From a virus (Duplodnaviria > Heunggongvirae > Uroviricota > Caudoviricetes): a stretch of DNA of 19,922 bases. The stretch lies in IMG/VR virus record IMGVR_UViG_2671180676_000002; one strand, written 5' to 3'. The notes below the pieces were generated by a model. The model worked only from the letters and a program-made list of their open reading frames with translations. It was not told the DNA's origin and did no database searches. Shown here one piece after another: positions 1-9,851 of the stretch. Both the position numbers and the translations under genes were made by a program. Positions within the stretch are counted from its first letter, which is position 1, and the number at the start of each line of letters is the position of its first letter.

Positions 1-202
1 CTTCTTTCATTCGCTGAAGGTGGAATGTATCCACGGGGAACGCTTTAGCAGCCGGGAAATAATGCGGGCAACGGTGTTTAATTATATCGAGTGTGATTAC
101 AATCGCTGGCGTCGTCACAGTGCCTGTGGCGGTCTCAGCCCGGAACAATTTGAAAACCATAATCTCGCTTAGGGCCGTGTCCACATTACGTGGGTAGGAT
201 CA
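1..202 (+). mobile_element. Right end of an IS3-family insertion sequence (element continues upstream of the window)
   Basis: Transposase C-terminus in frame 2..172, followed by a terminal inverted repeat at 173..202 (GGCCGTGTCCACATTACGTGGGTAGGATCA) ending in TCA, resembling IS3-group ends from memory. Exact IS name not determined. Confidence 0.75.
2..172 (+). CDS. IS3-family transposase OrfB, C-terminal fragment (5' end outside window)
   Basis: Translation [56 protein letters not shown] then TAG at 170-172; near-identical in pattern to the C-terminus of IS3 InsF as I recall it. Confidence 0.8.
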
Positions 203-249
203 TTATGCGGGTTTGAGCGGCATAAATTACCACTGAAAGCCCTTAAACG

Positions 250-1263
250 TTACTCTACTGTGGACACTGTGTGGACACTCTCGGCCTCAGTACCACCTCT
301 TAGCGGATTAAGAGAAATGGCGTCCTGAAGGTACTCTGGCGCAAAATGAGCGTAAACCATAGTTTGCTCAATCCGCGTGTGACCTAGTATCCGTTGTAGC
401 GTGATAATACTTCCTCCATTAATCATGAAATGAGTGGCAAAGCTGTGCCTTAGTGCATGTGTGGCTTGCCCCGTTGGCAAATCCGGTTTTATTGCTTTCA
501 TTGTTCGTCTGAAGCGAGGGTAATCAGCATCAGGGAATAAAAAACCTCGTTTGTTATCCGCGATCATTTTGGCAACAGCCTCTGAGATCGGGACGGTGCG
601 TGGTTTGTTTGTTTTCGTTTTAACAAACGTGACGCGGTTATGGATGATATTTTCTGCTTTCAAACGAGCTGCTTCTCCCCAACGTGCTCCTGTACTCAGG
701 CAAAGAATCGCAATCTTTTTATTGTCGCCGTCAAGTGCTGCAAGCAGTAAGGCAATTTCTTCCTGTGTGAGATAGCCTGTTTCTGGTTTTTCCTCCTTAA
801 GCCTCTTTGTCCCTCTGATAGGGTGCTCACCAAAGAATAACTCCGCTTCAATCAGGGCTGTAAACATGCCGCTAATACATGTTAAATCACGATTGATACT
901 CGAAGGTTTAATACCCTGACTTCTTCGGGTGGCGCAGTACTGGCTGATAAGGGATTTCGTGATTTGAAATGCGCATGGGTCATTCGTTATTTTTGTGAAG
1001 ATTTCAATTTTTCCAAGATTAGATTTCCCATGCTCTTCGTGTTTACCCTTTAAATCCCACCAGATCTGTGTCAGTTCCGACAGACGTCGTTTGTCTGTTG
1101 GTTTTGATAGCCATTCTTTATTGTGGTGGTTGTACAACGTGTATTTTTCGAAAGCGACAGCTTCGCTTTTCTTATCAAACTTCCTACGGATGCGTTTTCC
1201 GTTACGTCCAGTAGGGCGGATGTCCACTTCATATCGACCATCATCGAGTTTTTTGATTGCCAT
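250..1263 (-). CDS. int: Phage integrase, tyrosine recombinase (P2 Int type), 337 aa
   Basis: Full ORF in track; C-terminal catalytic region with HALRHSFATHF...LGHTRIEQTMVYAHF (R-H-R-Y family signature); RBS GGAGGG 7 nt upstream of ATG at 1263; length and position next to C match P2 int. Confidence 0.95.
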   Translation of the reverse strand: MAIKKLDDGRYEVDIRPTGRNGKRIRRKFDKKSEAVAFEKYTLYNHHNKEWLSKPTDKRRLSELTQIWWDLKGKHEEHGKSNLGKIEIFTKITNDPCAFQITKSLISQYCATRRSQGIKPSSINRDLTCISGMFTALIEAELFFGEHPIRGTKRLKEEKPETGYLTQEEIALLLAALDGDNKKIAILCLSTGARWGEAARLKAENIIHNRVTFVKTKTNKPRTVPISEAVAKMIADNKRGFLFPDADYPRFRRTMKAIKPDLPTGQATHALRHSFATHFMINGGSIITLQRILGHTRIEQTMVYAHFAPEYLQDAISLNPLRGGTEAESVHTVSTVE

Positions 1264-1378
1264 CAGAAAACCCTCCGAGTGGTACTTTTTTTTGCTACTA
1301 CTAATCGCTTTTTTCGTGGTGGCTGAAATTTAGCCACCAATAGTAGGCACTTGTGATGAATATATTCACGATGAATTG

Positions 1379-1678
1379 TTAACCAGTCTTTTGACCGGAG
1401 TGGGGCGACGTTGTTTCGTTTTGCCCAAAGTGTGCGAGAGCGGGCGCAATTTGCCCGGACTCAGGAGCGATCTGATTGGTCATGAACCATAAAGTGTATT
1501 TGGTGAATTGTGGGGTCTGCAGGATGTTCATCATGACATCTGTTGGAGGTGTTGAACGACCACTTTCATAGTAACTCAGCGTGCCATACGGAACCCCTGT
1601 TAAATCAGCAAGTTGTTGTCTGCTCAAATACTCAGATTTTCGCATTAAGACTATCTTCTCGCTTATCGTGTTTGACAT
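1379..1678 (-). CDS. C: Immunity repressor C, 99 aa (helix-turn-helix)
   Basis: 99-aa ORF divergent from cox, HTH-like segment LSRQQLADLTGVPYGTLSYYESG; start codon overlaps the -35 of the early promoter; matches P2 C in size and position. Confidence 0.9.
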   Translation of the reverse strand: MSNTISEKIVLMRKSEYLSRQQLADLTGVPYGTLSYYESGRSTPPTDVMMNILQTPQFTKYTLWFMTNQIAPESGQIAPALAHFGQNETTSPHSGQKTG

Positions 1679-1755
1679 GGTGTTTAGATCTCAATAGTAT
1701 TTAGTTTAGATGTAGATTGTTTAGTGCTTGGATGTGGGCACTAAAAGGCATTATA
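1672..1755. promoter_or_regulatory. Immunity switch: early promoter Pe (rightward), C operator direct repeats, and convergent Pc -10
   Basis: -35 TTGACA at 1672-1677, 17-bp spacer, -10 TAGTAT at 1695-1700. Ten-bp direct repeats TGTTTAGATC (1681-1690) and AGTTTAGATG (1703-1712), 22 bp apart, flank the -10 as described for P2 C operators. Reverse-strand TATAAT at 1750-1755 is a candidate Pc -10. Confidence 0.6.
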
Positions 1756-1792
1756 AGGCATTAAACGCAATTCATGAGGGCTGGAGGACGAC

Positions 1793-2068
1793 ATGAGCAA
1801 GCAAGTAACACTCATGACTGATGCGATTCCTTATCAGGAGTTCGCAAAACTAATAGGAAAATCGACAGGAGCGGTTCGTCGGATGATCGATAAAGGAAAG
1901 CTGCCTGTAATTGATATGACCGATCCACAATCAGCTTCAGGTCGTGCAGGTGAATATTGGGTATACCTTCCGGCATGGAATAACGGACTAAAACTGGCTT
2001 ATGAAAGCCGCCCTAAAGAGATTCGTGACGGCTGGTTGATGTGGTTAGGTCTCGGTGAACCACGTTAA
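1793..2068 (+). CDS. cox: Cox: excisionase and transcriptional regulator, 91 aa
   Basis: First gene rightward of the switch, RBS GGAGGA at 1783-1788, 91 aa as in P2 Cox. Confidence 0.9.
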   Translation: MSKQVTLMTDAIPYQEFAKLIGKSTGAVRRMIDKGKLPVIDMTDPQSASGRAGEYWVYLPAWNNGLKLAYESRPKEIRDGWLMWLGLGEPR

Positions 2069-2078
2069 GGAGAACCGT

Positions 2079-2249
2079 ATGAATGAGCCTCGTTGTATTG
2101 CTCAGTTACTGCGTAACGAAAGCCCCAGGGCGATTGACTTCACCATTACCCACGGTAAGGGGCGTAAGGGAATCATTATCCGCACCAAAAAACAGAGTCC
2201 GTTAAAGAAGGCTCTGACCTTTCTGAAAAGTCGGAGGGTCTGGAAATGA
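2079..2249 (+). CDS. Small hypothetical early protein (orf78 position of P2)
   Basis: ATG at 2079 preceded by AGGAG with 6-nt spacer; stop overlaps B start (ATGA). The ORF-track version from 2055 uses a GTG with no RBS. Confidence 0.5.
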   Translation: MNEPRCIAQLLRNESPRAIDFTITHGKGRKGIIIRTKKQSPLKKALTFLKSRRVWK

Positions 2250-2746
2250 CAGTGATGACGCTCAATCTTGTTGAAAAACAGCCAGCAGCTATGCGCCGGA
2301 TAATTGGTAAGCATCTGGCCGTCCCTCGCTGGCAGGAGACATGCGATTATTATAATCAGATGATGGAACGTGAACGGCTAACGGTTTGCTTCCATGCGCA
2401 GTTAAAACAGCGTCACACAACGATGCGTTTTGAAGAAATGAACGACGTCGAACGTGAACGACTGGTATGTGCAATTGATGAATTGCGTGGGGCATTCTCA
2501 AAACGCCGTCAGGTTGGCGCAAGTGAGTATGCATATATTAGTTTTTTAACAGTCAGTCAGCGTCGCACTTTATTTATGCACGCACGACTGACAGAAAAAG
2601 AATTTAACCAGCCATACTGGCGAATTAATGAGGAATCATGTTACTGGCGTGATGCTTTATTCCGTGCATTACGTGAATTATTCAGTCTGTTTGAGTATGC
2701 ACCGACAATTCTGACGTCGGTAAAACCAGAGCAATATCTGCATTAA
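2246..2746 (+). CDS. B: Replication protein B (helicase-loader-like), 166 aa
   Basis: 166-aa ORF, RBS GGAGG, position and length as P2 B. Confidence 0.85.
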   Translation: MTVMTLNLVEKQPAAMRRIIGKHLAVPRWQETCDYYNQMMERERLTVCFHAQLKQRHTTMRFEEMNDVERERLVCAIDELRGAFSKRRQVGASEYAYISFLTVSQRRTLFMHARLTEKEFNQPYWRINEESCYWRDALFRALRELFSLFEYAPTILTSVKPEQYLH

Positions 2747-2809
2747 GTAATTAACCAGAGTTTTTAACGCGCTTAATCGTGCGGGGCTTCTTTTTGCCCG
2801 GAGAAAGTC

Positions 2810-3034
2810 ATGCATACAGTTTCTGAAAATCAGTGCGGTAAATACGCATTACTGCTGCAACAGGCCAGAACCGAAGCACAGGCCGACGCTGCGACGCGCT
2901 TTTCTTCTCATCTTGACGCCATGATTCGCCACATCACAAAGGCGGAGTTATCCCGCGTGGAGATAGTCGAGCTGCTCAGTCAGGAGTCGGAAAAATTTCA
3001 CAATATCGGATTGTCTCGCGGGGAGGTGCTTTGA
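2810..3034 (+). CDS. Hypothetical early protein (orf80 position)
   Basis: ORF with GGAGA RBS; overlaps next gene by 4 nt. Confidence 0.7.
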
Positions 3035-3336
3035 TGTCCTGTTCTCGTTCAGTTGTATTACTGAATAACGCCTTAAAAATCGCCGTTATGGAAAATGGCG
3101 ATTTGTCTCTTATTCAACTTGGTCTTGATAAAGAAAAGCGCGACATAACTGAATCTGTTATCGCGATTTATCAGAATGAATTAAACCTCCTGTCTGATGT
3201 GGTCAATTTACTTGTTAAACGCGCTGTATTTCACAAGCAAATCTCCTCCGTGGATGAACTGACGAAATTAACGACAGAAATTGCCAGCTATTGCGCTGAT
3301 GAATTTAAAAAACTTAACGACAAAAGGAGCTGGTAA
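3031..3336 (+). CDS. Hypothetical early protein (orf81 position)
   Basis: ORF translationally coupled to neighbours. Confidence 0.7.
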
Positions 3337-3560
3337 TGCCGGACAACGTAGATTTTATTCAGGAACAACAGGCTGAATTACTGGAGCGTCAGATTAACGC
3401 GGCAAGGGTAAAACATTGCGGTGCTTCTGCGCTGGTTTGCGAAGAGTGTGACGCGCCAATACCTGCTGCCCGTCGTGCGGCTTATCCGTCAGCCACGCGT
3501 TGTGTTTCCTGTCAGTCAGTCTTTGAAGCAAAAAACAAACATTACCGGAGAACGGCATGA
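3336..3560 (+). CDS. TraR/DksA-family C4 zinc-finger protein (orf82 position)
   Basis: CEEC..x17..CVSC four-cysteine motif in a 74-aa protein; RBS AAAGGAG upstream. Confidence 0.8.
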   Translation: MPDNVDFIQEQQAELLERQINAARVKHCGASALVCEECDAPIPAARRAAYPSATRCVSCQSVFEAKNKHYRRTA

Positions 3561-3832: not shown

Positions 3833-6101
3833 AGCCTCCGGGCGTTTTGTCCCTCCGTCAGCATTTGCCGCAGGCACCGGTAAGGCGTTTACCGGTGCTT
3901 ATGCATGGAACGCGCCACGCGAGGCTGTCGGGCGCGAAAGACCTCTTACACGTGACGAGATGCGTCAGGTGCAAGGTGTTTTATCCACGATTAATCGCCT
4001 GCCTTATTTTTTGCGCTCGCTGTTTACTTCACGCTATGACTACATCCGGCGCAATAAAAGCCCGGTGCACGGGTTTTATTTCCTCACATCCACTTTTCAG
4101 CGTCGTTTATGGCCGCGCATTGAGCGCGTGAATCAGCGCCATGAAATGAACACCGACGCGTCGTTGCTGTTTCTGGCAGAGCGCGACCAGTATGCGCGCC
4201 TGCCGGGGATGAATGACAAGGAGCTGAAAAAGTTTGCCGCCCGTATCTCATCACAGCTTTTCATGATGTATGAGGAACTCTGCGATGCCTGGGTGGATGC
4301 GCATGGCGAGAAAGAATCGCTGTTTACGGATGAGGCGCAGGCTCACCTCTATGGTCATGTTGCTGGCGCTGCACGTGCTTTCAATATTTCCCCGCTTTAC
4401 TGGAAAAAATACCGTAAAGGACAGATGACCACGAGGCAGGCATATTCTGCAATTGCCCGTCTGTTTAACGATGAGTGGTGGACTCATCAGCTTAAAGGCC
4501 AGCGTATGCGCTGGCATGAGGCGTTACTGATTGCTGTCGGGGAGGTAAATAAAGACCGTTCACCTTATGCCAGTAAACATGCCATTCGTGATGTGCGTGC
4601 GCGCCGCCAGGCAAATCTGGAATTTCTTAAATCGTGTGACCTTGAAAACAGGGAAACCGGCGAACGCATCGACCTTATCAGTAAGGTGATGGGCAGTATT
4701 TCTAATCCTGAAATTCGCCGGATGGAGCTGATGAACACCATTGCCGGTATTGAGCGTTACGCCGCCGCAGAGGGTGATGTGGGGATGTTTATCACGCTGA
4801 CCGCGCCGTCAAAGTATCACCCGACTCGTCAGGTCAGAAAAGGCGAAAGTAAAACCGTTCAGCTTAATCACGGCTGGAACGATGAGGCATTTAATCCAAA
4901 GGATGCGCAGCGTTATCTCTGCCGCATCTGGAGCCTGATGCGCACGGCATTCAAGGATAATGATTTACAGGTCTACGGTTTGCGTGTCGTCGAGCCACAC
5001 CACGACGGAACGCCGCACTGGCATATGATGCTTTTTTGTAATCCACGCCAGCGTAACCAGATTATCGAAATCATGCGTCGCTATGCGCTCAAAGAGGATG
5101 GTGACGAAAGAGGAGCCGCGCGAAACCGTTTTCAGGCAAAACACCTTAACCGGGGCGGTGCTGCGGGATATATCGCAAAATACATCTCAAAAAATATCGA
5201 CGGCTATGCACTGGATGGTCAGCTCGATAACGATACCGGCAGGCCGCTGAAAGACACTGCAGCGGCTGTTACCGCATGGGCGTCAACGTGGCGCATCCCG
5301 CAATTTAAAACGGTTGGTCTGCCGACAATGGGGGCTTACCGTGAACTACGCAAATTGCCTCGCGGCGTCAGCATTGCTGATGAGTTTGACGAGCGCGTCG
5401 AGGCTGCACGCGCCGCTGCAGACAGTGGTGATTTTGCGTTGTATATCAGCGCGCAGGGCGGGGCAAATGTCCCGCGCGATTGTCAGACTGTCAGGGTCGC
5501 CCGTAGCCCGTCGGATGACGTTAACGAGTACGAGGAAGAAGTCGAGAGAGTGGTCGGCATTTACGCGCCGCATCTCGGCGCGCGTCATATTCATATCACC
5601 AGAACGACGGACTGGCGCATTGTGCCGAAAGTGCCGGTCGTTGAGCCTTTGACTTTAAAAAGCGGCATCGCCGCGCCTCGGAGTCCTGTCAATAACTGTG
5701 GAAAGCTCACCGGCGGTAATACTTCGTTACCGGCTCCCACGCCTTCTGAACACGCCGCAGCCGTGCTTAATCTGGCTGATGACGGTGTTATCGAATGGAA
5801 TGACCCGGATGTCGTGAGGGCGCTCAGGGGCGCATTAAAACACGGGCTGAGAACGCCAAATCGTCAACAAAGAAACGGAAGCCCGTTAAAACCGCATGAA
5901 ATTGCACCATCGGCCAGACTGAGCCGGTCTGAACGATTGCAAATCACCCGTATCCGCGTTGACCTTGCTCAGAACGGTATCAGGCCGCAGCGATGGGAGC
6001 TTGAGGCGCTGGCGCGTGGCGCGACCGTAAATTATGACGGGAAAAAATTCACGTATCCGGTCGCTGATGAGTGGCCGGGATTCTGGCATCAATTTGAGTA
6101 A
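3822..6101 (+). CDS. A: Replication initiation protein A (rolling-circle HUH endonuclease)
   Basis: Long ORF ending TAA at 6099-6101; HUH motif PHWHMMLF (H-W-H at 5016-5024) and paired tyrosines YIAKYISK (Y codons at 5169-5171 and 5181-5183). Start is ambiguous: the ORF track opens at TTG 3780, I prefer ATG 3822. Confidence 0.9.
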   Translation: MDVKASGRFVPPSAFAAGTGKAFTGAYAWNAPREAVGRERPLTRDEMRQVQGVLSTINRLPYFLRSLFTSRYDYIRRNKSPVHGFYFLTSTFQRRLWPRIERVNQRHEMNTDASLLFLAERDQYARLPGMNDKELKKFAARISSQLFMMYEELCDAWVDAHGEKESLFTDEAQAHLYGHVAGAARAFNISPLYWKKYRKGQMTTRQAYSAIARLFNDEWWTHQLKGQRMRWHEALLIAVGEVNKDRSPYASKHAIRDVRARRQANLEFLKSCDLENRETGERIDLISKVMGSISNPEIRRMELMNTIAGIERYAAAEGDVGMFITLTAPSKYHPTRQVRKGESKTVQLNHGWNDEAFNPKDAQRYLCRIWSLMRTAFKDNDLQVYGLRVVEPHHDGTPHWHMMLFCNPRQRNQIIEIMRRYALKEDGDERGAARNRFQAKHLNRGGAAGYIAKYISKNIDGYALDGQLDNDTGRPLKDTAAAVTAWASTWRIPQFKTVGLPTMGAYRELRKLPRGVSIADEFDERVEAARAAADSGDFALYISAQGGANVPRDCQTVRVARSPSDDVNEYEEEVERVVGIYAPHLGARHIHITRTTDWRIVPKVPVVEPLTLKSGIAAPRSPVNNCGKLTGGNTSLPAPTPSEHAAAVLNLADDGVIEWNDPDVVRALRGALKHGLRTPNRQQRNGSPLKPHEIAPSARLSRSERLQITRIRVDLAQNGIRPQRWELEALARGATVNYDGKKFTYPVADEWPGFWHQFE

Positions 6102-6191
6102 TGATCTCATCTATACAGTATTAAGCAGTTTTGACTGTAATTGATTGTTTTTTATATGGTTGCATGCATTAAATCTACGTCAATATCATTA

Positions 6192-6200
6192 TGTTATAAT
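6192..6200 (+). promoter_or_regulatory. Candidate extended -10 promoter for the plus-strand accessory genes
   Basis: TGtTATAAT (TG at 6192-6193, consensus TATAAT at 6195-6200) in an AT-rich leader, about 30 nt upstream of the ATG at 6229. Confidence 0.4.
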
Positions 6201-6228
6201 GCATTACTTAAAAATGTTGGAGACAAAA

Positions 6229-6420
6229 ATGTTAAAGCCTGCAGATGTTGTTTGTTTGAAAAGCGGTGGATTTAAAATGACTGTATCTGACTCTACTGAG
6301 ACTCATGCTAAATGTATTTGGCATGATAAAGAAGGAGTTTTGCACGAGGAGTCATTCTCCATTGATTTACTGGAAATAGCAGAGAGTAAAAGTGGTATGC
6401 TGTGTCGTCCACGTAAGTGA
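6229..6420 (+). CDS. Small DUF2158/YodC-like protein (about 63 aa)
   Basis: ATG at 6229 with GGAGA RBS (6219-6223); VVCLKSGGFKMTV...CIWHDKEG..HEESF..LLEI resembles the YodC/DUF2158 small-protein pattern from memory. The 91-aa track version starts at a TTG without RBS. Confidence 0.6.
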   Translation: MLKPADVVCLKSGGFKMTVSDSTETHAKCIWHDKEGVLHEESFSIDLLEIAESKSGMLCRPRK

Positions 6421-6447
6421 ATCACAATAAAATTCACGGGGGAAAGT

Positions 6448-7128
6448 ATGAAACAATACAGCGAATTAGAAAACAATGTTAAGAGATTCATTGTTGAGCA
6501 TGAAAAAGGGATTTCTATTGATGATATTCATCATAAGTTCCGGATGAAGGATGGTCAGAATCGCAAGATGGCAGATTATCTTATTGATAATAAAAAGATA
6601 ATTTTGGAGATGAAAAGTCTTTTTTCTGACAGGGTCAAGAATGTCAATGATAAATTGAATGAGTTGGTTAAAACTGATAGTTGGCTTGCAAAAAACTGGC
6701 ATGGTGCTATTCATTTAGAAGAGTTGATAAAAAGACACCCAGACTCAAAGCGATTTAGAAATGATATAATGAACTTTGCTTATGAAAATATTAAAACAAA
6801 GGTAGTTAAAGAAGCTAATAAGCAAATAAATGCAACAAAGGATGTTTTGGGTTTAAATGACTCGATTGGCGGATTGATTTTGTTAAATGATAATGTCTTT
6901 TCACATGAGTTTAATTATTTGTCAGATGAAATATTATATTTGCTAGGCACAAAGAGATATTCGAGTGTTGAGTTTGTGGTTTATATTGCAAAATTGATTG
7001 ATAAACAGGTTGATGTTTGTGTGCTACTTGACAGTCAATCTAAAAATAAAAATTATATTGAATGGTATATGAATAATGTTTTTTTGTTGAACTGGGCGTC
7101 TTTTAATAAATATGCAATAAAGATGTAG
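6448..7128 (+). CDS. Hypothetical protein, 226 aa, AT-rich accessory gene (candidate phage-exclusion/defence protein)
   Basis: Clean ORF with purine-rich RBS (GGGGGAAAG) 27 nt after the upstream stop; Lys/Asn/Ile-rich composition; possible D43..E54-x-K56 nuclease-like motif (ADYLIDNKKIILEMK). Function not established. Confidence 0.75.
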   Translation: MKQYSELENNVKRFIVEHEKGISIDDIHHKFRMKDGQNRKMADYLIDNKKIILEMKSLFSDRVKNVNDKLNELVKTDSWLAKNWHGAIHLEELIKRHPDSKRFRNDIMNFAYENIKTKVVKEANKQINATKDVLGLNDSIGGLILLNDNVFSHEFNYLSDEILYLLGTKRYSSVEFVVYIAKLIDKQVDVCVLLDSQSKNKNYIEWYMNNVFLLNWASFNKYAIKM

Positions 7129-7379
7129 TGGTGTGGATGGATATGAAATGAGTCAACCAAGATGCACCTTGGTCAGTAATCTCATGTGAGATACCACATA
7201 TAACACCAAAAGTGTCAGGTTGATGGCCATTGTTCACCGTTTACAGCAGATTATGGTCAACGAAAATCTGACGCCCGATGAGCTAGTCGGGTGTGCCGAA
7301 ATAGTCAGGGATAATTACGAACAGCTTAACTATATCGGTCAGTCCAGCCTTGCGCCGCCACCACGCAGACGATAGAGAA

Positions 7380-7418
7380 CCCCGCCAGCAATGAAACATG
7401 TTTTCAGTGCTGGCGGGG
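7380..7418. terminator. Hairpin between convergent accessory genes (likely terminator, mainly for the minus-strand gene)
   Basis: Perfect 11-bp stem CCCCGCCAGCA / TGCTGGCGGGG with a 17-nt loop; lies 31 nt downstream of the minus-strand gene stop. Confidence 0.45.
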
Positions 7419-7448
7419 TTGAACAACGAACGAAGTGAGGCGTTAGCA

Positions 7449-8390
7449 TTAAGTTAATTTTAATGAATGGTACTCTCGTGAGTTGACCGAAGATTTGAGA
7501 TAACCGCAATCATTAACCGACAGTATTGCCGCTAATAGGCGACAAACGAGTTTCTGCATTTGCAGTAATATATCGTTACCATATTGATTGTTGTTAACAC
7601 TGGAAAAACCAAGTGGTTGGCCAAAAAAAATAGCCTCATGAAAATTATCATTGCGGATGCCAGAAATGTTTTTTTTGCCTGATACCCATGTGGGGATTGA
7701 TAACCCATAAATTCTGCACATCCACTTTAATCGCTTGGAATGATTTGGCTGGGTTTTATCAGGAGCCTTGTCATGCTCAGCCCACGATAAAGCAAAGCAA
7801 CCATCAAGTGCCATGTAAAGGTACTGGAATTTTTCAAAAGGAAGGTATTGTGGGTTTTGAGATAAGAATAGCGCATGCACCACTGCCGCAATTCTTTTGG
7901 GGGAGTGCGCATCCTTTTGTTTGTTAGTTATATAATTAAGAGCCAGTTCTATGACTTCTTTTTCAGAGCATCCAACGAGAATAAAATCGGTTAACTTAGT
8001 GGGCTTGATAGTGGTTGCATCAAGAAAACCAGCGTCAGTGGTTGTCAATCTTATACCCTTGAAAAAAGAGAGGCACCACACAACAAAGTTGAGAGTTTCT
8101 AACGAGGATGTGTTTTTTAATTTTAGTGTGTGCGTTTTGGGCATGCCGAATACTCGGTAACTATAAGGCATTGTGCATGAGTCACCATTAAGGTTATATA
8201 CCTTTCGATTCCCAGGGTATATCCAACCATTAACAACGTTTTTATCATTGTTAATACGTTCCACTTTCTCAATAAGACCGGGTAAAGTACGCAAAGAAAA
8301 TTGTTCAGTCTCAATGTTAACTTCTACTGGATAGTATCCAAACTCCGAAATAATCTCATTTGGTTGCTGTTCGTCAACTTCGCCTTGCAT
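7449..8390 (-). CDS. Hypothetical protein, 313 aa, with HEPN-type R-N-x3-H motif (candidate abortive-infection RNase)
   Basis: ORF with GGAGA RBS 5 nt upstream of ATG at 8390; AT-rich; residues R246-N-D-N-F-H251 (plus-strand 7638-7655) fit the HEPN Rx4-6H motif with N after R. Fold not verified. Confidence 0.8.
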   Translation of the reverse strand: MQGEVDEQQPNEIISEFGYYPVEVNIETEQFSLRTLPGLIEKVERINNDKNVVNGWIYPGNRKVYNLNGDSCTMPYSYRVFGMPKTHTLKLKNTSSLETLNFVVWCLSFFKGIRLTTTDAGFLDATTIKPTKLTDFILVGCSEKEVIELALNYITNKQKDAHSPKRIAAVVHALFLSQNPQYLPFEKFQYLYMALDGCFALSWAEHDKAPDKTQPNHSKRLKWMCRIYGLSIPTWVSGKKNISGIRNDNFHEAIFFGQPLGFSSVNNNQYGNDILLQMQKLVCRLLAAILSVNDCGYLKSSVNSREYHSLKLT

Positions 8391-8628
8391 AACTTTCTCC
8401 GTTCAAAAACAGGCACGATAATTCTCGTAAGCCTATCATGTTCGCAAAGTATCCATACCTGTGGATTTTGTAAATTTAAGTTGGTTTGTCATTAAATAAG
8501 CCGTTGCATGCAACAAGTGAATGTTTTTGCATGCGTCGGGGATGTCCGTTCAGGCTGCGTGCGGTCAGGACTGGTGCGGATCCATAGTATCTATGCAACT
8601 GCATTAAAACCGCCCCATGAAGCGGGCG

Positions 8629-8647
8629 GGCGAGGCGGGGAAAGCAC
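8629..8647. other. P2-type cohesive end site (cos), 19-nt GGCGAGGCGGGGAAAGCAC
   Basis: Exact match to the P2 19-nt cohesive end as I recall it, in the GC-rich spacer upstream of the Q/P packaging operon. Confidence 0.8.
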
Positions 8648-8816: not shown

Positions 8817-9851
8817 TCAGCCGTTGTCAGTGTCCAGTGAGTAGTTTTTAAAGCGGATGACCTCCTGACCGAGCCAGCCGTTTATTTCCCGAATCCTGTC
8901 CTGTAACGGGATAAGCTCATTGCGGACAAAGACCTTTGCCACTTTCTCAATATCACCCAGCGACCCGACGTTCTCCGGCTTGCCGCCCATCAACTGAAAG
9001 GGGATGCGGTGCGCGTCCAGCAGGTCAGCGGCGCTGGCTTTTTTGATATTAAAAAAATCGTCCTTCGTCGCCACTTCACTGAGCGGGATAATTTTAATGC
9101 CGTCGGCTTTCCCCTGTGGTGCATAGAGAAACAGATTTTTAAAGTTGTTGCGGCCTTTCGACTTCACCATGTTTTCGCGGAGCATTTCGATATCGTTGCG
9201 ATCCTGCACGGCATCAGTGACGTACATGATGTATCCGGCATGTGCGCCGTTTTCGTAATACTTGCGGCGGAACAGCGTGGCCGACTCATTCAGCCAGGCA
9301 GAGTTAAGGGCGCTGAGATATTCCGGCAGGCCGTACAGCTCCTGATTAATATCCGGCTCCAGCAGGTGAAACACGGAGCCGGGCGCGAAGGCTGTCGGCT
9401 CGTTGAAGGACGGCACCCACCAGTAAATATCCTCTTCCACACCACGGCGGGTATATTTTGCCGGTGAGGTTTCCAGTCTGATGACCTTACCGGTGGTGCT
9501 GTAACGCTTTTCCAGAAATGCATTACCAAATACCAGAAAATCCAGCACAAAGCGGCTGAAATCCTGCTGGGAAAGCCATGGATGCGGGATAAATGTCGAG
9601 GCCAGAATATTACGTTTGACGTAAATCGGTGAGCTGTGATGCACGGCAGCACGCAGGCTTTTTGCCAGACCGGTAAAGCTGACCGGCGGCTCATACCATC
9701 TGCCGTTACTGATGCATTCGACGTAATCCAGAATGTCACGGCGGTCGAGCACCGGCACCGGCTCACCAAAGGTGAATGCCTCCATTTTCGGGGCGCTGGC
9801 AGTCATTTTTTTTGCCGCAGGTTGCGGTGTTTTCCCTTTTTTCTTGCTCAT
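8817..9851 (-). CDS. Q: Portal (capsid vertex) protein Q, 344 aa
   Basis: 344-aa ORF adjacent to cos, start overlaps P stop (ATGA); size and position as P2 Q. Confidence 0.95.
   Translation of the reverse strand: MSKKKGKTPQPAAKKMTASAPKMEAFTFGEPVPVLDRRDILDYVECISNGRWYEPPVSFTGLAKSLRAAVHHSSPIYVKRNILASTFIPHPWLSQQDFSRFVLDFLVFGNAFLEKRYSTTGKVIRLETSPAKYTRRGVEEDIYWWVPSFNEPTAFAPGSVFHLLEPDINQELYGLPEYLSALNSAWLNESATLFRRKYYENGAHAGYIMYVTDAVQDRNDIEMLRENMVKSKGRNNFKNLFLYAPQGKADGIKIIPLSEVATKDDFFNIKKASAADLLDAHRIPFQLMGGKPENVGSLGDIEKVAKVFVRNELIPLQDRIREINGWLGQEVIRFKNYSLDTDNG

Follow-up and report, generated by a model that had tools for sequence, protein, structure and literature searches.

What does a P2-like prophage carry between its replication gene A and its cohesive-end (cos) site, and could this cargo act against other phages? 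The question is raised here by positions 6102-8628 of a 19,922-nucleotide (nt) stretch of viral DNA (IMG/VR record IMGVR_UViG_2671180676_000002, referred to below as the window), which is a P2-like Escherichia coli prophage with the gene run integrase, early genes, A, cos, Q, P, O, N, M, L, lysis and tail genes. An earlier note, made from the sequence alone, had described this interval as a single AT-rich island of candidate anti-phage cargo. Comparison with related phages and prophages indicates that the cargo is not one island but two cassettes, split by a 259-bp spacer and exchanged independently of each other. The first holds a small DUF2158 gene followed by ORF226, which is assigned as a predicted PD-(D/E)xK nuclease; the second holds a single gene, ORF313, whose product probably contains a HEPN domain (Table 1).

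Two cassettes and the spacer between them

Sequence comparison identifies the interval as the cos-proximal variable slot of a P2-like prophage, also known as the TO region or defence hotspot. It lies between A and cos/the portal gene Q, and its cargo varies among collinear relatives (P2, Wphi, Yersinia phages and E. coli prophages) whose junctions are conserved. Canonical P2 has orf91 here on the plus strand and tin and old on the minus strand, running leftward from a start next to cos; other P2-like prophages carry DinI-like, ImmA/IrrE, DUF3850 or methylase genes at the same place. The A stop at 6101 and the start of cos at 8629, where the cohesive-end sequence of P2, GGCGAGGCGGGGAAAGCAC, is matched exactly, are where the earlier note had put them, as are its three open reading frames (ORFs). 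Its statement that exact P2 lengths are kept on both sides is right for Q (344 amino acids (aa), 8817-9851) but wrong for A, which has 759 aa against 761 in P2. The product of A is 97.6% identical to P2 gpA across 754 aa. No match to P2 Orf91, Tin or Old was found for the island proteins (best BLASTP expectation value (E) 0.7), nor is there an Old-like protein in the interval. With a P2 backbone on both sides (A and the cos flank), an interior lacking orf91, tin and old, and other genes in the relatives, the proposal of a cargo swap stands. The whole interval is 99.9% identical to that of E. coli strain A_5, whose prophage sits by yegR.

Alignments place the left and right limits of the variable region. 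When the end of A was aligned with Wphi, another P2-like record, a Yersinia P2-like phage and two E. coli prophages, the common sequence ended at 6084, 17 nt before the A stop; homology thus ends inside A, which is why its product has 759 aa and a different tail. The last 17 nt of A (6085-6101) belong to the variable region, and the last five residues of its product differ from those of the 761-aa P2 gpA. On the right, canonical P2 aligns to the final 29 nt alone (8600-8628), so that the region variable with respect to canonical P2 is 6085-8599. Since the records of Wphi and of Yersinia phage VB-YPM-4 terminate exactly at 8628, the cos cut is fixed there. The stretch 8501-8628, of 54.7% G+C, is taken to be cos flank rather than cargo.

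Base composition sets the interval apart from its flanks and differs within it. The interval has 37.7% G+C, against 53.7% in A, 52.7% in Q and 57.6% in P, so that the flanks do exceed one half, as had been noted by eye; the lowest-G+C stretch of 2527 bp in the window starts at 6001 (37.5%, about 2.4 standard deviations (sd) under a mean of 51.9%, sd 6.0%). The three cargo genes have a third-position G+C of 0.30-0.37, as against 0.55-0.72 in A, Q and P. The earlier estimate of roughly one-third G+C fits the left part (6102-7187) and fails for the ORF313 part and for the interval as a whole. The sub-region values differ (Table 1), and the interval is therefore not uniform. AT-richness as such is normal for the slot, since the orf91-tin-old interval of P2 itself has 35.3% G+C.

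Between the two AT-rich parts lies the spacer, which is found in Wphi, NC_070904, several Yersinia and Escherichia P2-like phages and many E. coli prophages, and which is absent from canonical P2 in an alignment with that phage. The window thus differs from canonical P2 in having two sub-slots parted by a conserved spacer. The spacer holds a fourth, small ORF and a hairpin, both overlooked in the single-island description. The small ORF matches a 68-aa protein of phage VB-YPM-4 but lacks part of its N-terminal end; the PGAP label of this ORF, 'meiotically up-regulated 80 protein', is an uninformative and evident misnomer. The hairpin, placed between the convergent units, is likely to be a two-way terminator for both of them, a role that we infer, as it has no clean T tract; a terminator scan confined to loops of 3-8 nt and at least five T in the eight bases after the stem missed it. 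No Rfam RNA family occurs in the interval, and hence no retron or small-RNA antitoxin.

That the two cassettes move separately is seen in their distribution across 5426 complete E. coli genomes. Cassette 1 is present as a block in 27 genomes, at 98.8-99.8% identity, and ORF313 in 98, with alleles ranging from less than 80% to 100% DNA identity. All 27 genomes with cassette 1 also carry an adjoining ORF313, as do eight of eight IMG/VR contigs. Beside a near-identical cassette 1 the ORF313 allele is of one of two sorts, near-identical as well or no more than about 87% identical at the DNA level (about 83% at the protein level). Conversely, 71 of the 98 ORF313-positive genomes have no cassette 1, and in the three of these that were inspected the left sub-slot holds DinI-like, ImmA/IrrE or DUF3850 genes. 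A Citrobacter P2-like prophage carries DUF2158 and a 227-aa ORF226 homologue followed by an unrelated gene, with no ORF313, and in infective P2-like phages of Yersinia another gene takes the left place beside ORF313. This mosaic distribution suggests that the spacer acts as a joint between two independently exchanging sub-slots. Anatomy, junctions and mosaicism are read directly from the sequences and alignments; the recombination that would have produced them is the proposed explanation.

Table 1. Features of the A-to-cos interval and its borders (window coordinates).
Feature	Position	Strand	Basis or remark
Gene A, replication endonuclease, 759 aa	3822-6101	+	Pfam Phage_GPA, E 6e-123; PGAP start in the 99.9%-identical strain A_5
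Cassette 1, 32% G+C: promoter-like region, DUF2158 gene and ORF226 as one operon	6085-7187	+	right edge is the start of alignments to other P2-like phages
Promoter-like site, TTGACT, 18-nt spacer, TATGGT	6131-6160	+	consensus scan, 9/12 matches; such sites not clearly above chance
YodC-like DUF2158 protein, 63 aa	6229-6420	+	Pfam PF09926, E 4.7e-8, 33.1 bits (cut-off 22.3); phrog_3261
ORF226, predicted PD-(D/E)xK nuclease, 226 aa	6448-7128	+	D43 and E54-x-K56 on a beta hairpin
Conserved spacer, 259 bp, 49% G+C, between the two cargo sub-slots	7188-7446	+	82-88% identity to P2-like phages
Small ORF, 51 aa from TTG (ATG at 7223)	7220-7375	+	phrog_11386, E 7.6e-26
Hairpin between convergent units, 19-bp arms	7378-7420	.	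inverted repeat, 95% complementary; -31.8 kcal/mol, z -7.5
Cassette 2, 39% G+C	7447 to about 8500	-	ORF313 and its upstream region
ORF313, 313 aa	7449-8390	-	alpha/beta domain at the N terminus (about residues 11-140); HEPN-like helical domain at the C terminus, with RNDNFHE (R246-H251)
ORF313 upstream region	8391-8500	-	GGAGAAAG before the ATG; promoter-like site 8492-8465
Cos flank (54.7% G+C) and 19-nt cohesive end (8629-8647)	8501-8647	+	exact P2 cohesive-end match; 8600-8628 96.6% identical to P2
Sub-region, left	6102-7187		32.0% G+C (ORF226 alone 30.0%)
Sub-region, spacer	7188-7446		49.4% G+C
Sub-region, ORF313 part	7447-8500		38.6% G+C (ORF313 part 38.6-39.1%)
Sub-region, cos flank	8501-8628		54.7% G+C

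The promoter-like regions that the earlier note had seen ahead of both units are present as hexamers, although their number (13, against 8.0 +/- 2.8 in shuffled sequence) is not clearly above chance. Outside the slot, the early/immunity end of the window (1-3500) has 43-48% G+C against 53-62% in the late genes, and includes an integrase (250-1263, minus strand), a repressor-like gene (1379-1678, minus strand) and a cox-like gene (1793-2068, plus strand).

Two predicted nucleases in catalogued cargo

Neither the slot nor its cargo is new to the databases, and the interval is not an unexplored find. GenBank AM157369 ('P2-EC67 proviral ORF226 and ORF313'), deposited in 2006, is 99.4% identical to the window over 2.5 kb, has coding-sequence notes for ORF73, ORF226 and ORF313, and presumably comes from the 2006 survey of the variable locus by Odegrip and colleagues. 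PADLOC 2.0, which includes the Rousset systems, gave no component match to any of the four interval proteins at E up to 1; scans with Pfam, PADLOC, PHROGs and NCBIfam returned DUF2158 and function-less PHROGs only, PDB sequence and profile searches gave chance-level matches only, and the public copies of the cargo proteins are all named 'hypothetical protein'. Both cassettes appear in the P2-hotspot census of Rousset et al. 2022, which covered 18,150 copies of the locus in 1,650 gene arrangements with 169 curated systems: the pair of ORF226 and DUF2158 is system 63 of Table S5B (67 loci, label 'DUF2158'), with proteins near-identical to those of the window, and the ORF313 family is system 11 (218 of 18,150 loci, the eleventh most common cargo, no label), whose protein is a recognisable ORF313 allele. 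The P2-EC67 ORFs and these two systems are the same cargo, with no biological difference, and those records give no domain assignment. Neither cassette is listed among the cloned or tested systems in the portions of Rousset 2022, the Vassallo 2022 supplements and DefensePredictor 2026 that were available.

The assignment of ORF226 to the PD-(D/E)xK (restriction-endonuclease-fold) nucleases is a prediction from conserved residues and a structure model. Across 36 relatives, down to 19% identity, only D43, E54, K56, Q126 and N147 are invariant, and in the predicted model (predicted local distance difference test (pLDDT) score 80.6), which shows a restriction-endonuclease-like alpha/beta core, D43, E54 and K56 map to consecutive strands (44-46 and 51-57). 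The model also has a helical insertion of about 55 residues (78-134). Three of the 36 profile-linked relatives match Pfam Mrr_cat and two match DpnII-MboI. In fold and D...ExK motif, ORF226 would thus resemble the stand-alone PD-(D/E)xK defence nucleases (type II and IV restriction enzymes, NucC, and the PD-(D/E)XK proteins validated by DefensePredictor), which are likewise short and often single-gene defence cargo of mobile elements. It differs from them in the extra insertion, in having no methyltransferase, cyclic-nucleotide sensor domain or ATPase partner, and in its DUF2158 partner, which is not reported for any known system.

Close relatives of ORF226 form only 26 sequence clusters and come from enterobacteria alone; 348 distant relatives were recovered when 1.8 billion representatives were searched with a profile, and a search of species-representative genomes with the ORF226 alignment gave no matches. 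Some of the relatives lie among defence genes: one at 41% identity follows a CI-type repressor and sits beside DUF4238, a gene validated as defensive in the P2 hotspot (Rousset 2022), and another is flanked by a DUF559 endonuclease and a type I restriction-modification (R-M) system. PADLOC matches in distant relatives (PDC-S12, CBASS E2, cyclase) were set aside, as they fall in SEC-C-like C-terminal tails or other regions outside the nuclease domain. The family also occurs in other formats. The ORF226-like domain forms the middle of proteins of 600-740 aa (P0162, P0166, P0175, P0184), some with SEC-C-type zinc tails, and forms of about 340 aa with a conserved C-terminal extension exist. On IncFII plasmids of Pantoea ananatis (loci L004-L007; 6001-6723 of L004) a lone 240-aa homologue, 63% identical and without DUF2158, has a PLD-type nuclease gene as its neighbour, not far from the plasmid replication region.

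The DUF2158 gene, for which PGAP predicts an identical 63-aa coding sequence, has GGAG 7 nt ahead of its ATG and, like both large genes, a good Shine-Dalgarno sequence; 27 nt separate it from ORF226. Both proteins are about 76% identical to their Citrobacter copies, an equality which suggests that they diverged together. Their pairing is confined to the P2-type cassette lineage. The small gene is therefore not the conserved neighbour that a type II toxin-antitoxin pair would have, and the loci compared indicate that DUF2158 is not a general partner of this nuclease family.

ORF313 occupies the position and orientation of old-tin in P2, and the DNA upstream of it recurs in other ORF313-carrying phages and prophages, travelling with the cassette. 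At 45% identity or more, 390 members of its family can be detected; those named come from Enterobacteriaceae, Aeromonas, Pseudomonas, Acinetobacter, Stenotrophomonas and Providencia, all gammaproteobacterial. R246, N247, H251 and E252 do not vary among 34 sequences of 45-91% identity, in a shallow family in which 57 of 313 columns are invariant; they form an Rx4-6H HEPN motif, RNxxxH(E), that an AlphaFold model (pLDDT 82, predicted template modelling score 0.83) places on helix 243-256. From this motif and its setting ORF313 probably has a HEPN domain, in a family outside all curated models. Its N-terminal domain has no recognised counterpart. The profile of residues ~240-280 (window ~7551-7673, minus strand) also gave E 0.011 to residues 4-44 of NrdB over the block RNDxxHEAxFFxxPLGF, probably by chance. 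ORF313 would share its layout, an N-terminal domain followed by a C-terminal HEPN domain, with multi-domain HEPN families such as the Apea-like ones (Anantharaman et al. 2013; for example Rousset system 45); one UniRef name in the ORF313 family is 'Apea-like HEPN', and a similar F..ALD helix precedes the motif. The working model proposed for ORF313 is HepS of the Salmonella prophage Gifsy-1 (PMC13043305), which is held inactive until a phage structural protein switches it on and then cuts tRNA anticodon loops; like HepS and Tha of S. aureus, ORF313 is a prophage-borne single protein with an Rx4-6H HEPN motif.

Relatives of ORF313 are also found among defence genes. Providencia copies adjoin AbiH, TIR, DUF3800, type I R-M with GmrSD, or PIN genes, and a Pseudomonas aeruginosa homologue lies in an integrase island with HNH and TIR-NACHT genes. 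The P. aeruginosa homologue always follows, by about 50 nt, a gene for a 73-aa XRE-type helix-turn-helix (HTH) protein (loci L009-L011; 5729-5950 of L009), a possible regulator or antitoxin that the P2 version of ORF313 lacks. In E. coli 2013C-3492 (locus L023, 3503-5724) an ORF313 allele, in a prophage whose A carries a pseudogene annotation, is cut to 199 aa beside IS2, an instance of inactivated cargo. Conserved motifs, fold similarity of the predicted models and the contexts of relatives are observed; nuclease activity and substrates are predictions.

Anti-phage function weighed against the alternatives

We consider it somewhat better than an even chance (roughly 0.55) that both cassettes are anti-phage systems, a prediction from conserved motifs, fold models, hotspot position and gene neighbourhoods; that at least one of them is anti-phage is somewhat more probable still. 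The label of candidate anti-phage cargo given by the earlier note is a fair one in the light of the predicted PD-(D/E)xK and HEPN nucleases, the relatives in defence islands and a published machine-learning score for an ORF313 allele. The last is WP_001161722.1, 74% identical to ORF313, which the DefensePredictor prediction table (Science 2026), the only part of that source in which it was found, lists as a 'Predicted novel defense gene' with a mean log-odds of 9.68; the stringent cut-off for the E. coli strain set was 4. The slot itself has a record of defence. Immune systems from the P2 hotspot include Old, Tin, retrons, DUF4238 and DprA-PRTase, and three of eight further P2-hotspot systems cloned beyond the old-tin of P2 were defensive (Rousset 2022). 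Like tin and old, the window cassettes are non-essential cargo of a P2-like phage in the A-to-cos slot, of similar AT-richness and with a cos-proximal unit directed leftward; unlike them, they show no sequence similarity to Orf91, Tin or Old and encode no ABC-ATPase or Toprim protein. Rst_3HP, a three-hypothetical-protein system of the same hotspot that protects against P1 (Rousset 2022), likewise consists of genes without recognisable domains. We rejected the identification of the interval with this validated system, as there is no PADLOC match and the peptides of the interval are absent from Rousset's table of tested systems.

We propose the following model. Two autonomous cassettes would recombine independently through the conserved spacer. 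ORF313 would be a one-protein abortive-infection nuclease, made from the prophage as old and tin are, and kept inactive until its N-terminal domain senses a phage-derived cue; the HEPN domain would then, on the pattern of HepS, cut RNA (tRNA or mRNA) and halt translation before the invader finishes its cycle. ORF226 may act as a stand-alone restriction-like DNA nuclease without a methyltransferase, which would attack incoming DNA or be set free in the course of infection. For the co-transcribed DUF2158 protein we can only guess at a role, that of a lineage-specific modulator of ORF226 (inhibitor, adaptor or sensor). Expression in the lysogen, the triggers and any anti-phage effect are predictions of this model.

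A number of results weigh against the anti-phage reading and the assignments beneath it. The hotspot also carries partition systems and a cytolethal distending toxin (Rousset 2022), so that its cargo is not always defensive, and some relatives of the large cargo proteins lie in ordinary chromosomal neighbourhoods, among them an Aeromonas relative of ORF313 at an ordinary-looking site. ORF226 itself matches no curated nuclease model in Pfam, PADLOC or NCBIfam, and its relatives on the Pantoea plasmids and at the loci of five distant relatives have no DUF2158 beside them. ORF313 and 33 relatives gave no Pfam, NCBIfam or PADLOC match, hence no Pfam HEPN model among them; no PADLOC 2.0 defence model matches 34 ORF313 and 36 ORF226 relatives over the homologous domain. 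The confidence of the ORF313 model is low at residues 250-261, H251 included, and a Foldseek search of this model against the PDB found no match (best E 0.19). Membership of ORF313 in the Apea-like HEPN family gained no support, since hhalign against a single sequence and against an 18-sequence profile of Rousset system 45 was non-significant (E 0.21 for the profile); the system 45 family, labelled HEPN_Apea, itself had no Pfam match in our hands.

Alternatively, the cassettes may serve addiction, in the manner of toxin-antitoxin modules, and so keep the prophage or its cargo in place rather than defend against phages, DUF2158 neutralising a toxic ORF226 and ORF313 being a self-restrained HEPN toxin. 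The small gene directly upstream of the predicted nuclease, in antitoxin-toxin order, the joint divergence of the two proteins and the XRE-type HTH gene that precedes the P. aeruginosa homologue of ORF313 are all suggestive of such modules. We nevertheless hold this to be rather improbable: ORF226 relatives stand alone on the Pantoea plasmids and elsewhere, which is hard to reconcile with an obligatory antitoxin role of DUF2158, and ORF313 has no partner gene in P2-like phages. Many toxin-antitoxin-like modules are, moreover, abortive-infection defences, so that addiction would overlap with the anti-phage function that we favour.

Equally low in probability is some other benefit to phage or lysogen, be it counter-defence against host immunity, interference with P4-type satellites or a lysogenic conversion unrelated to phages. 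Non-defensive cargo of the same hotspot and the position of the slot beside cos, which P4 satellites share, would suit a function of this kind, as would the retention of ORF313 by infective Yersinia P2-like phages, which indicates that a carrier of the gene can still grow lytically. Defence is, however, the better fit for nuclease folds whose catalytic residues are conserved, for neighbours such as AbiH, TIR, R-M, GmrSD and DUF4238 and for the high score of ORF313 in a defence-prediction model, and homologues in chromosomal islands and on plasmids lack a phage backbone altogether.

A single multi-gene system made up of DUF2158, ORF226, the small ORF and ORF313 is very improbable, and we reject it on distribution: although an ORF313 allele adjoins cassette 1 in every E. 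coli genome and IMG/VR contig that has the latter, the units are convergent and parted by a strong hairpin and backbone-like DNA, each occurs without the other (ORF313 in 71 E. coli genomes, cassette 1 in Citrobacter), the ORF313 alleles beside near-identical copies of cassette 1 differ by up to 17%, and Rousset 2022 curated the two as separate systems. Hardly credible, too, is that the ORFs are decaying passengers of a recombination hotspot, for although the small ORF is shorter than its 68-aa relatives, one ORF313 allele is cut by IS2 and ORF226 is confined to few enterobacterial clusters, the ORFs are full-length with good ribosome-binding sites and confident folded models, the catalytic residues of ORF226 persist to 19% identity, and ORF313 has 390 homologues, those listed being from a range of gammaproteobacterial genera, with 57 invariant columns in the 34-sequence alignment.

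Implications for P2-like phages and their cargo

The hotspot is well described and its cargo has been catalogued twice. New here are the two-cassette anatomy with its mapped junctions and, as predictions, the assignment of ORF226 and ORF313 to the PD-(D/E)xK and HEPN nucleases with named catalytic residues. Two entries named 'hypothetical protein' thereby become directly testable: ORF226 is given a candidate catalytic triad (D43, E54, K56), and ORF313 a model of an N-terminal sensor joined to a HEPN domain, with R246 and H251 as catalytic residues. Specialists are unlikely to be surprised, and the value of these assignments is incremental. The two sub-slots, with a conserved spacer as a recombination joint, illustrate how P2-like phages mix their cargo.

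A further possibility, which we regard as tentative, is that one cassette or both would be a genuine anti-phage system working in a way that no described family covers, the candidates being the sensor-HEPN arrangement of ORF313 and DUF2158 as a regulator or sensor of the nuclease. If so, ORF313 would represent a widespread gammaproteobacterial one-protein defence, in which recognition of a phage product by a new N-terminal domain would set free a HEPN ribonuclease. The YodC/DUF2158 family includes a conserved RpoS-dependent chromosomal protein of E. coli and Salmonella, and a regulating or sensing role for a PD-(D/E)xK nuclease would give this family its first function.

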